Notes: generated from the letters alone by a model not told the origin. 64,000 bases of DNA from Mycobacteriales bacterium (GCA_039648995.1 JBBWZH010000045.1:2821-66820), one strand, 5' to 3'; counted from the stretch's first letter, positions 131 to 27,068 are shown. Made by a program: numbers and translations.

Positions 131-1288
131 TCACATCATGAAGTCGACAGTGCCGCGGGCGGGCGGCGGCGCGAGGTCGCCGTCGGCCATGACCAGAACC
201 CGTTCCCGGTCGTGCTGCACCTGCAGCGCCACCGGTCGACCCGTCTCGCAGCGGAACGGCACGTCGAACGTCTGGATCGCCTGCCGCCAGTGGTTGCCGC
301 GCTGCTCGGGCCCGGTGGACAGCGATACGCCCGGCGCCAGGTCCAACTCGAACCAGATCGCGATCGCGTCGCAATCGCCGTTCGCCGCCGGCACCGCCTT
401 GATCACCTCGCGCGCCGGCGGGCAGTCGACGTTGAAGTCGACGTCCAGCAGCGGGAAGGGCGACGTGAGCGCCTGGTGCGGGTAGTTCTCCAGATAGGTG
501 TCGAAGTACTCGAGGGACCTGAACTGGTTGAACGTGCTGACGTCGAACCCGCACGCGGTCGACACGTAGTTGTGCGACCGGATGTTGTCGCTGGATACCA
601 ACTGCCCCCACAGGCGTGCCCGCCCCGGCAGGATTCTGGCGCCGTCGGCGAGCAGTTCCCGGCGGGCGTGCTCGACGGTCGGCAGCACATTCTCGCCGAG
701 CAGCCCGCAGTCGAAGATCTCGGTCACGAGCACGTCGGCGGGCGCCGGCAGATCGACCCCCACCCGCAGGTTGGTGGACAGGCCGTCGACCACCCGGACG
801 CGGTCCTGGTACCCGTTCGCCGCGACGATCTGCCGCGCCACGTCCGCGATCACCGGCTCGGCCTCGCAGCTGATGACGAGCCCCGCCCCCGCCTGCGCGG
901 CGAGCAGGGCCAGCAGGCCGCTGCCGGTGCCGATGTCGAGAACCAGATCGCCGGGGCGCACCGTCGCCGCGATCGCCGCCTCGTACGCGGCGTTGCGCCG
1001 GTGGTCGTTGATCATGGCGAAGTGCCACCGTGGCACCAGGCGGCGGATCACGCGGTTGAGCAGCCGCCCCGGGATCGGGTCGTCCGCACCGGCGAGCGAC
1101 TCGGCGCGGGCCAGGTAGCCGATGGCGGCGGAATAGTCGTGCTGCGCTATCGCCGCGCGGCCGAGCGTGAGAAGCGCCGCCACCGAGTGGGCCTCGCCGG
1201 CGGTCTGTAGCGACAGCGACGAGTCGGCGACGATGCCGTTCGATCCGGCGAGGGTGGACTCGGATGCAGCCTGCACTGAATGCCTCAC
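131..1288 (-). CDS. Class I SAM-dependent methyltransferase, protein-arginine-methyltransferase (PRMT)-like; candidate free-arginine guanidino N-methyltransferase
   Basis: ORF 131..1492 trimmed to the GTG at 1288, which forms a GTGA overlap with the Rieske stop. SAM motif I is VLDIGTGSGLLALLAA and the acidic post-I is VISCE. The double-E-like loop TEIFDCGLLGE has the same E-x8-E spacing as PRMT1 SEWMGYCLFYE. GNHWRQA is a THW-like loop. Confidence 0.75.
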   Translation of the reverse strand: MRHSVQAASESTLAGSNGIVADSSLSLQTAGEAHSVAALLTLGRAAIAQHDYSAAIGYLARAESLAGADDPIPGRLLNRVIRRLVPRWHFAMINDHRRNAAYEAAIAATVRPGDLVLDIGTGSGLLALLAAQAGAGLVISCEAEPVIADVARQIVAANGYQDRVRVVDGLSTNLRVGVDLPAPADVLVTEIFDCGLLGENVLPTVEHARRELLADGARILPGRARLWGQLVSSDNIRSHNYVSTACGFDVSTFNQFRSLEYFDTYLENYPHQALTSPFPLLDVDFNVDCPPAREVIKAVPAANGDCDAIAIWFELDLAPGVSLSTGPEQRGNHWRQAIQTFDVPFRCETGRPVALQVQHDRERVLVMADGDLAPPPARGTVDFMM

Positions 1289-1608
1289 CTGGCTAGGACC
1301 ATCGTGTGGGTCGCTACCGGCGCGGCCTGCTCCGGAGCGGGGATGTAGGCGATCACCTGACCGCCGCGTTGCACGGTCGAGACGCTCCGGGCGCACAGCC
1401 GGTCCACCCGGAACGTGCTGCCGTGCCAGGGGCACCGCAACCGGCCCTCCTGCACGTCTCCCAGGTGCAGTGGACCGCCGCGGTGCGGACACCTGCTGGT
1501 GATCAGGTGCACCGCGCCCTCGCGGAGCATCACGAAGTAGTGGTCCTCGCCGAGGATCACCGTGTTCTGCTCGGGCCAGTTCAGCTCGACGCGGACCAGC
1601 GTGCTCAC
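1285..1608 (-). CDS. Small Rieske [2Fe-2S] protein (ferredoxin/NirD-like)
   Basis: 107 aa with CPHRGGPL ... CPWHGSTF (CxH / CxxH Rieske ligands). GTGA overlaps at both ends (1605-1608 and 1285-1288). Confidence 0.85.
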   Translation of the reverse strand: MSTLVRVELNWPEQNTVILGEDHYFVMLREGAVHLITSRCPHRGGPLHLGDVQEGRLRCPWHGSTFRVDRLCARSVSTVQRGGQVIAYIPAPEQAAPVATHTMVLAR

Positions 1609-2948
1609 CGCTCCGGGCTCACGACGACGGTCGCGTCCGCCGCGGCCTGCATGCCGTACAGGCGACCCCGCGGGACGTGCACCGCGTGGCCGGCGGTCAG
1701 GCGGAGTGGTGTGCCGGTGGCGCTCCAGTACACGTCCACCTGGCCGCCGCGGACGTTGAGCAGAGTGCCCTCAGTGGCGACCTGCGTCTCAAACGGAGTA
1801 CCCGCGGTCAGCTCCCTCGTCGTGCCGGCCACGGTCGACGGGCTGAACGCGTGCGTCTCGGGTATCCACCGGAGTTGGGCGAGCAGGTCGGCGTCGGCGA
1901 GCGCGCCAATCAGCCTAATCTCCTCTACACCCCGAATCAGCCCGTGCGCGGCCACCCGGCCGTGTTTCCGGGCGAGTGGGAGGAGTAGGTCATGCACCGC
2001 CATTCGGCCGTGATGCTGGTCGATGTGTGCGTGCTCATCGCAGTACCTGGTATCGACGCCGTCGCCGTAGACCTTGCCCAGCGTGCCGGCGAGCGCGGCG
2101 AACCACGGCGCGAACGTGGCCTCCAGCAGCGCCATCGCACCTATGTACCGGAAGAACTCGGTGCGGTTGCGGGTGACCGTGTAGAAGTAGTTGTTCGCGG
2201 CGATCGAGGTGGGCAGGTAGAAGAACCAGTAGTGGTGCGGCTCGGCGGCCATCCCGATGCTCGCGCAGAGGTCGGTGAACAGCGTGCTGTGTTTGGCCGC
2301 GAAAACGCCGTAGCCGAACTCGTCGACAAAGATCTTGAAGAGTTCGCTCTGTTCGGGGCCGAATGCGCCGCCGAGGTTCTGCGACATCGCGGTCGCCTCG
2401 GTCAGGCCATCCAGAGCCATTTGGGCTATAAGCATCTCGGCCGCACGGCGTGGGTCGGCGGCGGCCGCGATCGCGTCCAGCACCGGCCGCTCCGCGTGGA
2501 CCGCCTCGTCGATCGAGCGCTCCAGGTGCGCCAGCGCGGCGTCCGGCTCCCACGAGCCCGTGACCTTGACGCTGTCCTCCAGAAAGCCCAGCGCGTACCG
2601 CTCTACGGCAGGCCTCGCCTGATCGGCCAGTTGGCGGTTCCGGGTGCTGTAGAACGCCTCGAAACTGCGCTCCTTGCCGTGCAGCCCGTCCGCCGGGAGA
2701 AATAGCGCATCGCTCTCGTAGACGTTCATCAGAAAGCGATTGGCCAGGAGGCTGGAGTCGGAGGCGAACTCCGCCTCGGTCAGCGGCCGGGCCCAGTCGA
2801 TCGCGGCCAGCCGGGCGACGTCCAGCGGCCTGTGGTAAGGGTTGTGGCGAATGTACGGCGATGGCTGCGCGCGATATGGATCGCTGCTGGCGAAATCCGC
2901 GACAGCTGCCGTGACGAGGTCTGCCGCCGGTAGCGCGACATTGGGCAT
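1605..2948 (-). CDS. Heme-oxygenase-like diiron oxidase (iron-containing redox enzyme family) with a cupin-like C-terminal tail; SznF-like architecture
   Basis: 447 aa. The central region carries a carboxylate/His pattern (DEFGYG, AKHS, LLEATF, DEHAHIDQHH, the last giving HxxxDxxH). The C-terminal ~90 aa is beta-rich (GTLLNVRGGQVDVYW...TAGHAVHVPRG). ATG at 2948 is preceded by AAAGGA. Confidence 0.7.
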   Translation of the reverse strand: MPNVALPAADLVTAAVADFASSDPYRAQPSPYIRHNPYHRPLDVARLAAIDWARPLTEAEFASDSSLLANRFLMNVYESDALFLPADGLHGKERSFEAFYSTRNRQLADQARPAVERYALGFLEDSVKVTGSWEPDAALAHLERSIDEAVHAERPVLDAIAAAADPRRAAEMLIAQMALDGLTEATAMSQNLGGAFGPEQSELFKIFVDEFGYGVFAAKHSTLFTDLCASIGMAAEPHHYWFFYLPTSIAANNYFYTVTRNRTEFFRYIGAMALLEATFAPWFAALAGTLGKVYGDGVDTRYCDEHAHIDQHHGRMAVHDLLLPLARKHGRVAAHGLIRGVEEIRLIGALADADLLAQLRWIPETHAFSPSTVAGTTRELTAGTPFETQVATEGTLLNVRGGQVDVYWSATGTPLRLTAGHAVHVPRGRLYGMQAAADATVVVSPER

Positions 2949-26245: not shown

Positions 26246-26261
26246 CGGGTCGGAGCCAGTC

Positions 26262-27068
26262 GTGTGGACTAACGTCGCGCCGATGAGCGCGATTCTGGTG
26301 CCGTACCACCTCGAGGAGTACCTGCCGGATCTGGACGTGCCGGTGCGGACGGCGGTCACGGTGCGCGCGGTGGCCGCCGGCGGCGATCAATGGGCCCGGC
26401 TCGGCGGGCTCTACCGGCGGGTCGCGGCGGCGGTCCGGGACGAGGTGGGCGCTGGCGGGGCGGCCCTGGTGGTCAGCGGCGACTGCATGACCGCGCTGGG
26501 TACGGTCGCCGGGCTGCAGCGGGCGGGGTTGGATCCGGCGATCGTCTGGTTCGACGCGCACGGCGATCTGCAGACCCCGGAGACGTCGACGTCGGGGTAC
26601 GTCGGCGGGATGCCGCTGCGGATCCTGGTCGGACACCGGCCCGAACTGATCGCCGAGCGGCTCGGGCTGGCGGCGGTGGCACCGGACCGGGTCACCCTGG
26701 TCGGCGCCCGCGACCTCGACCCGCCAGAGGTCGCGTACCTGGCCGGCAGCGCCATCCGCAGCCTCCCCGTTGGCGCGGTGACCGCCGAGTCGCTGCCGGA
26801 CGGGCCGCTGTACCTGCACGTCGATCTGGACGTGATCGACCCCGCCGGCCTGCCCGGCCTGCGGTTCCCGGCCAGCGGCGGCCCGGACGCGGCCGCCACG
26901 ACCACCGCTCTGCGCCGGGTGCTCGACACCGGACGCGTCGCCGCGGTCGGCCTGGCCTGCACCTGGCGCCCCGGCCAGCACGCCGCCGACCGGCTCCGCC
27001 CACACCTGGAACCCCTGCTCGCCCGGCTACGCCCGGCGTCCGGCCACGGGCCGGCCCACCAGCGCTGA
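26262..27068 (+). CDS. Arginase/ureohydrolase-family protein with an atypical first metal motif
   Basis: 268 aa with DAHGD and HVDLDVIDP (DxDxxDP) present. The position of the canonical GGDH[ST] reads SGDCM. Alternative start ATG at 26283. Confidence 0.7.
   Translation: MWTNVAPMSAILVPYHLEEYLPDLDVPVRTAVTVRAVAAGGDQWARLGGLYRRVAAAVRDEVGAGGAALVVSGDCMTALGTVAGLQRAGLDPAIVWFDAHGDLQTPETSTSGYVGGMPLRILVGHRPELIAERLGLAAVAPDRVTLVGARDLDPPEVAYLAGSAIRSLPVGAVTAESLPDGPLYLHVDLDVIDPAGLPGLRFPASGGPDAAATTTALRRVLDTGRVAAVGLACTWRPGQHAADRLRPHLEPLLARLRPASGHGPAHQR

Follow-up and report, generated by a model that had tools for sequence, protein, structure and literature searches.

We describe an antibiotic-type biosynthetic gene cluster at positions 131 to 27068 of a 64,000-nucleotide stretch of DNA from a Mycobacteriales bacterium (GCA_039648995.1 JBBWZH010000045.1:2821-66820), hereafter the window. 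The source is an uncultured actinomycete represented by a metagenome-assembled genome (MAG), in which the cluster lies on a 71.9-kb contig, with Pseudonocardiaceae as nearest relatives. The region is probably a single, co-regulated and uncharacterised cluster made of five modules: arginine tailoring, thiotemplated assembly, precursor supply, export by a major facilitator superfamily (MFS) protein and control by a Streptomyces antibiotic regulatory protein (SARP). Judging from its active-site residues and its pairing with a small iron-sulfur protein, the protein of this cluster that is annotated as a nitrosourea synthase probably yields an N-hydroxylated methyl-arginine instead. The literature searched yielded no account of such a cluster, the comparison being made without MIBiG or antiSMASH.

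Because most long open reading frames are shadows at the ~75% G+C of the window, genes were called by third-position GC (GC3). Protein families were assigned with Pfam and NCBIfam. This procedure resolved the region into 21 tightly packed genes, which form five transcription blocks (131-2948, minus strand; 3288-6259, plus; 6334-17405, minus; 17479-19665, minus; and about 20157-27068, plus). Six gene junctions have 4-nt start/stop overlaps (1605-1608, 4589-4592, 11074-11077, 13223-13226, 13945-13948 and 17160-17163), overlaps of 7 or 8 nt occur at two others, and positions 131 and 27068 both coincide exactly with gene ends. A sequence-only reading of the same DNA had described a contiguous, tightly packed cluster with 4-nt overlaps, which the gene calls confirm. 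The components it listed were also recovered by domain searches: an arginine-tailoring cassette (PRMT-like methyltransferase, Rieske protein and haem-oxygenase-like oxidase in Pfam and NCBIfam), an exporter (MFS in Pfam), a dissociated nonribosomal peptide synthetase (NRPS) with its own phosphopantetheinyl transferase (PPTase), and a cluster-situated SARP with BTAD, Trans_reg_C and NB-ARC domains. In terms of condensation (C), adenylation (A), carrier (T) and thioesterase (TE) domains, Pfam resolves the NRPS into A, C-T-TE, A, C-A-T and T proteins, a type II thioesterase (TEII) and an ACPS-family PPTase.

The same reading had taken the region for one uncharacterised NRPS-centred cluster, and related loci bear this out through synteny in Solihabitans and rearranged recurrence in Kutzneria, Labedaea and a contig of the European Nucleotide Archive (ENA). 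In Solihabitans fulvus (L071), the same genes lie in the same order at 57-85% amino-acid identity: aminotransferase-ProA-ProB, SARP, T, C-A-T, TEII, a ligase fused to an acyl carrier protein (ACP), PPTase, the adenylating enzyme A2, C-T-TE, the adenylating enzyme A1, MFS, oxygenase, Rieske protein and methyltransferase. The last three genes are called the trio below. Kutzneria viridogrisea/albida and the ENA contig display a second architecture of this NRPS family, which adds a decarboxylase, a T protein, two acyl-CoA dehydrogenases (ACADs) and a pyridoxal phosphate-dependent enzyme. The trio adjoins the NRPS in Kutzneria (L002), the ENA metagenome (L076) has both on one 930-kb contig, and in Labedaea (L004) the trio lies between two SARPs, beside ProB, ProA and the aminotransferase. 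The trio and this NRPS family are thus neighbours in three arrangements (that of the window, L071 and L062; that of L002; and that of L004); that they stay together although the loci have been rearranged argues for functional linkage.

The arginine cassette occupies the left end of the region:

131-1276, minus strand, PRMT-like (SznE-like), predicted arginine N-omega-methyltransferase of 381 aa (Pfam PrmA and PRMT_C)
1285-1608, minus strand, small Rieske [2Fe-2S] protein of 107 aa (Pfam Rieske, 1.3e-11)
1605-2948, minus strand, three-domain SznF homologue of 447 aa (haem-oxygenase-like 'iron-containing redox enzyme')

The submitter named these genes arginine Nomega-methyltransferase, nitrite reductase small subunit and nitrosourea synthase, respectively. 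The methyltransferase has PRMT9 and PRMT7 as its top matches in the PDB (~1e-44) and contains motif I (VLDIGTGSG), the double-E loop (EIFDCGLLGE) and the NHW loop. Both ligand motifs of the Rieske protein (CPH...CPWH) are present, and its start codon overlaps the stop codon of the oxygenase gene by 4 nt, an arrangement of translational coupling. The oxygenase matches SznF end to end (PDB 6M9R; E = 6e-87, 37% identity). Its AlphaFold model, with a predicted local distance difference test (pLDDT) score of 90.6, aligned to 6VZY by Foldseek over 456 columns with a TM-score of 0.88 at 2.2 Å. Over its whole length, the model retains the N-terminal dimerisation domain, the haem-oxygenase-like diiron oxidase (HDO) domain and the beta-barrel.

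The two metal sites of this protein have fared differently. All seven HDO diiron ligands (EEHEHDH) are kept, as E189, E215, H225, E281, H311, D315 and H318, a set that includes the extra Glu typical of N-oxygenases. None of the three cupin iron ligands is kept: in MAFFT alignments, Q, A and Y occupy the positions of H407, H409 and H448, which phmmer aligns as R, a gap and Y, with no histidine by either alignment. The two GHAVH histidines near the lost site are not conserved in relatives. Across the relatives that form group 1, no cupin histidine is conserved and Pfam finds no cupin domain. SznF of the streptozotocin pathway is the paradigm of enzymatic N-nitrosation. It joins the N-N bond, and mutants in H407, H409 or H448 fail to do so and accumulate dihydroxylated N-methyl-arginine (PMC11705231). 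Since the three histidines are lost here and SznF mutants at these positions stop at the dihydroxy intermediate, no N-nitrosourea would be expected. On its residues, the window protein is outside the nitrosourea-synthase family in the functional sense, because the defining 3-His cupin site was looked for and is absent.

Some multicomponent diiron monooxygenases receive their electrons from Rieske ferredoxins, and we infer that the Rieske protein of the cassette is the electron donor to the diiron site. To our knowledge, HDO assays have needed artificial reductants; if the proposed pairing is true, the native electron donor of an HDO enzyme would be identified.

Compared with SznE/SznF (streptozotocin, Streptomyces achromogenes), the window cassette shares a PRMT-like, predicted arginine methyltransferase and the three-domain SznF fold with its seven diiron ligands. 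It differs in the loss of the cupin histidines, in having a dedicated Rieske partner and in its genetic context, which is an NRPS and not the szn genes. SznF-family proteins also occur in the arginine-processing NRPS clusters of gramibactin (GrbD) and chalkophomycin (ChmM). In these proteins the HDO site is dead while all three cupin histidines are in place, and they depend on a haem N-oxygenase of the YqcI/YcgG type (PMC10849742). The window protein is their mirror image, with HDO intact, cupin dead and a Rieske partner; no YqcI/YcgG gene was found at the window cluster. A graminine/diazeniumdiolate pathway of the GrbD/ChmM kind was considered and rejected on account of the opposite ligand pattern and the haem partner there.

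A scan for relatives of the oxygenase, with one genome per species, gave 66 loci. The HDO site is intact in all 66 and the 3-His cupin site in none; a methyltransferase accompanies the oxygenase in 63 of the 66 loci and a Rieske gene in 58. We also classified 91 members of the superfamily, namely the window protein and the 90 full-length sequences among the 150 best SznF representatives at 50% identity. Both sites are intact in 10, and 35 combine a dead HDO with a 3-His cupin (the GrbD/ChmM pattern). The largest class (43 of the 91, the window protein included) has an intact HDO and none or one of the cupin histidines, and we found no functional description of this class in the literature searched. 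The public 'nitrosourea synthase' label is probably wrong for this whole clade, as judged from its residues. If true, it would constitute a third functional class of SznF relatives, mirroring that of GrbD/ChmM. Orphan NRPS clusters are common; what is unusual here is the widespread HDO-only SznF clade with its Rieske partner, together with a carrier-fused papain-like ligase.

The exporter and the thiotemplated assembly line follow the cassette:

3288-4592, plus strand, MFS exporter of 434 aa (Pfam MFS_1 and MFS_3; ATG at 3288 after GGAGG)
4589-6259, plus strand, stand-alone adenylating enzyme A1, VinM/IdnL7-like, code DPFFLALITK
6334-8736, minus strand, C-T-TE protein of 800 aa with motifs HHVVLDG, GGRSL and GWSMG (Pfam)
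8815-10395, minus strand, stand-alone adenylating enzyme A2, code DGVMFGCVTK (Pfam)
10460-11077, minus strand, Sfp-type PPTase (Pfam ACPS and 4PPT_N)
11074-12489, minus strand, 471-aa candidate papain-like ligase of the CtaG/BtrH/AziU fold with a C-terminal carrier domain (S425)
12483-13226, minus strand, short-chain dehydrogenase/reductase (SDR), FabG-like (Pfam adh_short and NCBIfam)
13223-13948, minus strand, TEII with motif GWSLG (Pfam Thioesterase)
13945-17163, minus strand, C-A-T module of 1072 aa with motifs HHIVGDG and GAHSL, code DVQYCSHAAK (Pfam)
17160-17405, minus strand, stand-alone carrier protein of 81 aa (Pfam PP-binding; serine visible in LESLS)

The start of the MFS gene agrees with public gene calls, and its orthologues in the Solihabitans and Amycolatopsis clusters are ~72% identical. 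The SDR is present in L062 and L072 and absent in L071 and L069. The catalytic motifs of the NRPS are in place: HHxxxD in both C domains, the carrier serines, GxSxG in TE and TEII, and Asp235 and Lys517 of the A domains. From a complement of four carriers, three A enzymes, two C domains, a single papain-like ligase and a single TE, we expect a short peptide of perhaps 3-4 units. The C-T-TE protein is the releasing module, its T domain probably loaded in trans by A2, whose gene overlaps that of C-T-TE in the Solihabitans locus.

The 471-aa protein has no Pfam match, and most of its 83 homologues go by the name 'acyl carrier protein'. A carrier domain with the invariant S425 makes up the C-terminal 80 residues, which Foldseek matches to ACPs. 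The N-terminal 310 residues (model pLDDT 88.5) match AziU3/U2 (2e-7), CtaG (5e-5) and CcbD (6e-3), each with a Foldseek probability of 1.00. C29, H131 and D143 are invariant in 42 homologues, with a spacing like that of the CtaG triad, C11/H128/D144 (PMC12865890). The model and the sequence spacing of the putative Cys-His-Asp triad therefore point to a CtaG/BtrH-type papain-like ligase fused to an ACP. The papain-like, carrier-protein-dependent amide ligases include CtaG, BtrH, AsbE and the carrier-fused MllDE (PMC12865890). With the CtaG/BtrH/AsbE/CcbD ligases and the AziU3/U2 fold, the window protein shares the bipartite papain-like fold and has a similarly spaced, putative Cys-His-Asp triad, and MllDE is a precedent for its carrier fusion. 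It differs in being at most 23% identical to any solved member, in lacking a Pfam match and in the long low-complexity linker to its C-terminal ACP; AziU3/U2 itself forms an aziridine, not an amide bond.

This linker (residues ~311-385) comprises ~75 residues rich in Ala, Pro and Asp, derives from imperfect GC-rich direct repeats and is modelled as disordered (pLDDT <50 at residues 347-374). The protein also has a short Gly-Ala run at residues ~216-226, and both the linker and the run are absent from the three orthologues compared. The same ligase-ACP fusion occurs in Micromonospora chalcea (L067/L068) with an A1-like enzyme (code DPFFLALVTK), beside genes for an inositol-1-phosphate synthase, inositol monophosphatase, DegT aminotransferase, glycosyltransferase, ornithine/diaminopimelate decarboxylase, T protein, two ACADs and a flavin reductase. 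These genes suggest that its product is an aminocyclitol carrying a butirosin-like acyl side chain.

Specificity codes were read by alignment to a GrsA sequence, which reproduced the code of GrsA itself (DAWTIAAICK). In the C-A-T code DVQYCSHAAK, we take D-V-Q...H to be the pattern of proline-type pockets, although the lining residues are smaller here. This A domain thus appears proline-like, with a predicted pocket larger than that for standard proline, and a substituted proline is possible. The code is identical in Amycolatopsis L069 and nearly so in Kutzneria L002 (H322 replaced by L). The top PDB match of A1 is 6AKD (1e-105), which is IdnL7 (PMC11253843), followed by 8K4R; A2 matches LgrA module 2 (a glycine module), 8K4R and IdnL7. 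Like VinM and IdnL7 of beta-amino-acid macrolactam pathways, A1 and A2 stand alone, with neither a T domain nor an MbtH partner, and their top matches place both with the VinM-type enzymes, which aminoacylate carrier-bound substrates. The residue after the conserved Asp is Pro in A1 and Gly in A2, whereas it is typically Cys in VinM-type enzymes (PMC11253843). Specificity and acceptor probably differ from the VinM type as well, as suggested by these codes and by a cluster without a polyketide synthase. The assembly line joins two rare amide-forming strategies, a carrier-fused CtaG-like ligase and VinM-like adenylating enzymes, with classical C domains, making the cluster a useful test case for non-canonical thiotemplated logic.

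Seven genes form the right-hand, plus-strand block:

20157-21197, plus strand, glutamate 5-kinase ProB with a PUA domain (TIGR01027, 229 against a cutoff of 186)
21200-22450, plus strand, glutamate-5-semialdehyde dehydrogenase ProA (NF001221, 539 against a cutoff of 289)
22517-23671, plus strand, class I (aspartate/aromatic-type) alpha-aminotransferase (Pfam Aminotran_1_2)
23682-26245, plus strand, PxpA, PxpB and PxpC, the 5-oxoprolinase subunits (Pfam LamB_YcsF 2e-85, CT_C_D 4e-48 and CT_A_B 4e-63)
26262-27068, plus strand, divergent arginase-family ureohydrolase of 268 aa (Pfam Arginase, 83 bits)

The start of ProB is uncertain: the reading frame is open from 19809, ~116 codons upstream of the kinase domain, orthologues have ~370 aa, and the upstream open frame (19809-20156) overlaps the divergent promoter with two motif copies described below. 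ProB orthologues adjoin the NRPS in L071, L069 and L004. ProA is 79-81% identical to the cluster copies of L069 and L071, and the aminotransferase, whose top PDB matches are aspartate/aromatic aminotransferases (4e-60), is 73-77% identical to its copies there. At 62-81% identity, ProB, ProA and the aminotransferase accompany the NRPS in Solihabitans, Amycolatopsis and Labedaea. Taken with the proline-like A domain, they point to a supply of Δ1-pyrroline-5-carboxylate (P5C) and proline from glutamate, not of arginine. The sequence-only reading had proposed a seven-gene supply operon; the same-strand block is as described, but only ProB-ProA-aminotransferase is conserved with the cluster in relatives.

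A precedent exists in the scleric acid cluster, where an extra glutamate 5-kinase (SclK) beside a proline-activating NRPS is the proposed precursor supply (PMC13307308). Here, ProB is joined by ProA, an alpha-aminotransferase and possibly PxpABC, and the A-domain pocket is larger. A direct ornithine route through ProB, ProA and the aminotransferase, by analogy with Ask-Asd-EctB, is disfavoured because the aminotransferase is of the aspartate/aromatic alpha type, not a class III omega-aminotransferase. A route to a substituted proline (substituted 2-oxoglutarate to glutamate to P5C) is neither supported nor excluded, and no 2-oxoglutarate-modifying enzyme was found. On NF003814 (cutoff 226), PxpA reaches 315. 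The arginase-like protein scores 81 bits on TIGR01229 against an equivalog cutoff of 228. The binuclear Mn ligand motifs of arginase are GGDHS, DAHxD and DxDxxDP; this protein has DAHGD and VDLDVIDP, and SGDCM for GGDHS, with Cys replacing His. From these motifs it is assigned to the arginase/ureohydrolase superfamily and to nothing narrower. Cycloserine logic involves DcsB-like hydrolysis of N-hydroxy-arginine, and we retain such a role for this gene only as a possibility in view of the non-biosynthetic contexts of the three homologues examined.

Regulation is represented by the following features:

17479-19665, minus strand, large SARP (Trans_reg_C, BTAD and NB-ARC in Pfam)
2949-3287, no strand, divergent promoter region of the trio and MFS, with a sigma70-like TTGACA-17-GAGAAT at 3209-3237 and the motif copy TTCGATGTTCT at 3151-3161
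19666-20156, no strand, divergent SARP/ProB promoter region, with motif copies at 19697-19707 (plus) and 19944-19954 (minus)

The SARP has BTAD (1.8e-46) and Trans_reg_C (7e-8) domains besides NB-ARC, and its Solihabitans orthologue lies in the same position at 64% identity. As the sequence-only reading had noticed, a common upstream motif links four transcription units. With at most one mismatch, TYCGATGTTCT has four copies, at 3151, 17488, 19697 and 19944, against 0.49 expected, and none of 100 shuffles reached four. Every copy falls within or next to a promoter region of the MFS/trio, NRPS, SARP or ProB units, and the 11-mer extends to ~18 nt of the form ATGTACTNYCGATGTTCT. Conservation of the 11-mer in relatives was looked for and not found. 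The shared motif fits a common regulator, and the SARP probably acts on these putative sites.

Several observations weigh against joining all of these genes in one pathway. That the substrate of the methyltransferase and oxygenase is an arginine derivative is drawn from homology only, at 37% identity to SznF. A-domain codes for Arg, Orn or Lys usually have an acidic pocket residue, and none of the three codes, set against known codes, contains one. Amycolatopsis japonica (L069) has the NRPS core and ProB-ProA-aminotransferase with the same or near-identical A-domain codes and no trio, a second Solihabitans cluster (L072) is likewise an NRPS core without it, and the trio of Streptomyces and other genera is accompanied by just a permease and a SARP, so that it can be self-sufficient. 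Evidently, the modified arginine is dispensable for making the peptide. The earlier guess of an N-methylated or N-oxygenated arginine unit was right in kind, given the SznE/SznF-like cassette, but its incorporation by an A domain is unsupported, as the near-identical codes of the trio-less L069 indicate. Such facts would suit two adjacent, chemically independent units, in which the trio, perhaps with the MFS protein, makes and exports free modified arginine while the NRPS builds its peptide without it; the group 1b loci, which consist of the trio, an amino-acid permease and a SARP only, would be its parallel. We nevertheless think this division unlikely. At least five Pseudonocardiaceae-type loci (window, L071/L001, L062, L002 and L004) place the trio next to this NRPS family and the L076 contig encodes both, the three arrangements of the trio argue for selection on linkage, the motif is common to the divergent trio/MFS promoter and the NRPS, SARP and ProB promoters, and a single SARP serves the whole region. 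The right-hand limit is less settled, and it is quite possible, if short of probable, that PxpABC and the arginase-like gene (23682-27068) are housekeeping neighbours and that the cluster ends at the aminotransferase, at ~23.7 kb. PxpABC does not follow the aminotransferase in L069 (Amycolatopsis) or L004 (Labedaea), the two relatives readable there, and the arginase-like protein, besides falling under its equivalog cutoff, has more than 100 homologues at 60-70% identity, many of them at 64-70%, with unrelated, non-biosynthetic neighbourhoods in all three cases examined. Against this, the four genes lie on the same strand as the aminotransferase gene with gaps of 10-16 nt or an 8-nt overlap, and a promoter or terminator between it and them was looked for and not found; the tight spacing (10-16 nt) suggests co-transcription with the rest of the operon. 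PxpABC is also metabolically sensible next to an extra ProB, since 5-oxoproline is a side product of gamma-glutamyl phosphate, and the end of the aminotransferase operon cannot be read in Solihabitans, the closest full relative, whose locus stops there.

A further alternative concerns the chemistry of the cassette, which might still form an N-N group (an N-nitrosourea or a diazeniumdiolate) if the Rieske protein or a remodelled beta-barrel replaced the lost cupin iron site. All three domains of SznF are still there, and the barrel has been kept, not deleted, in many lineages, which suggests a retained function; a redox-active Rieske partner accompanies the oxygenase in most of the loci, and both the submitter and the Joint Genome Institute annotate these proteins as nitrosourea synthase. 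Set against the replacement of the iron ligands by Q, A and Y in a member of a group in which none is conserved, the effect of substitutions at these very residues in SznF, the variable GHAVH histidines and the missing Pfam cupin domain, we regard N-N bond formation as quite improbable.

Under the preferred reading of one cluster whose cassette stops short of the N-N bond, the PRMT-like enzyme would N-omega-methylate free L-arginine, as SznE does, and the SznF homologue would then N-hydroxylate the guanidine at its diiron (3His/4carboxylate) site with electrons from the coupled Rieske protein. The output would be a mono- or di-N-hydroxy-N-methyl-arginine, not an N-nitrosourea. The free T protein, C-A-T, ligase-carrier, two free A enzymes, C-T-TE, TEII, SDR and PPTase may jointly build the short peptide. 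Our best guess is that the papain-like ligase or a C domain takes the modified arginine as a free amine acceptor, a route favoured because no A-domain pocket is arginine-like and because BtrH and AsbE use free acceptors (PMC12865890). ProB, ProA and the alpha-aminotransferase would raise the supply of P5C and proline for the proline-like A domain, PxpABC, if a cluster member, would recycle the 5-oxoproline arising from gamma-glutamyl phosphate, the MFS protein would export the product, and the SARP would activate four units via the shared motif. The cluster can be read as a hybrid of SznE/SznF tailoring without the N-N step, amide logic of the CtaG/BtrH and VinM types, and classical C-A-T and C-T-TE modules. 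If true, this would imply a family of N-hydroxy-guanidine amino acids or peptides, plausible antimetabolites of the arginase or nitric oxide synthase type.

The trio appears to behave as a portable module, since it is found alone or with ATP-grasp ligases elsewhere and the NRPS core also occurs without it. Tentatively, it may be a widespread uncharacterised cassette, present in at least 66 actinomycete species, that makes an N-oxygenated methyl-arginine 'warhead' delivered free through a permease, via ATP-grasp ligases in Actinomadura and relatives, or via this NRPS. If this were true, the Rieske protein would be the first described dedicated redox partner of a haem-oxygenase-like diiron oxidase.

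In minimal loci (L005-L019 and L023, from Streptomyces, Nocardiopsis, Actinomadura spongiicola and MAGs), the oxygenase, Rieske protein and methyltransferase are joined by an amino-acid permease and often by a SARP, and no NRPS lies within 10 kb; the trio alone with a permease suggests that it can make an exported free amino acid. A different type is seen in L020, L026, L028, L037 and ~40 further loci of Actinomadura, Spirillospora, Dactylosporangium and Actinoallomurus, where two SznF paralogues flank the Rieske and methyltransferase genes, together with an amidinotransferase/arginine deiminase-like gene, two ATP-grasp L-amino-acid ligases, an MFS protein and a 455-aa protein without a Pfam match. 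Two of the three cupin histidines are often kept in the second paralogue. Neither paralogue has the full 3-His site, and we therefore rejected these loci as true szn clusters; by gene content, they look like a distinct, uncharacterised szn-like pathway.

Both borders of the cluster are marked by the following features:

40-130, minus strand, terminator-like hairpin directly 3' of the methyltransferase stop codon, the likely left cluster edge
27218-31336, minus strand, JetC2
31425-32690, minus strand, JetB2
32687-34234, minus strand, JetA2
34308-35426, minus strand, JetD2

At the left edge, this very stable hairpin (-57.9 kcal/mol, z = -4.9) comes directly after the methyltransferase stop codon at 131, and none of 200 shuffles folded as well. 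Past the methyltransferase, the syntenic loci (Solihabitans and a Kutzneria MAG) continue with mutually unrelated genes, and the sole other contig with the exact same protein stops just past the methyltransferase. The earlier suspicion that the left boundary might lie outside the window is largely answered by the hairpin and these unrelated genes. On the right, the neighbour is a complete Wadjet type II operon (27218-35426, minus strand), ~150 nt from the cluster end. With both sides taken together, the cluster most likely sits wholly within the window.

Beyond the Wadjet operon, a gene of the nitronate monooxygenase family (53841-54842) lies ~27 kb from the cluster, and nothing was seen that ties it to the cluster. 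Genes resembling those of ESX/type VII secretion systems (T7SS) are found at 37163-38754, 41427-45674 and 59944-63912. They encode a 417-aa protein that matches the WXG100 and T7SS-signal domains weakly and below cutoff, and two large FtsK/SpoIIIE (EccC-like) ATPases, one with an N-terminal FHA domain. Also encoded are helix-turn-helix proteins with a peptidoglycan-binding domain and a Ser/Thr kinase with a peptidoglycan-binding domain (48039-49949).

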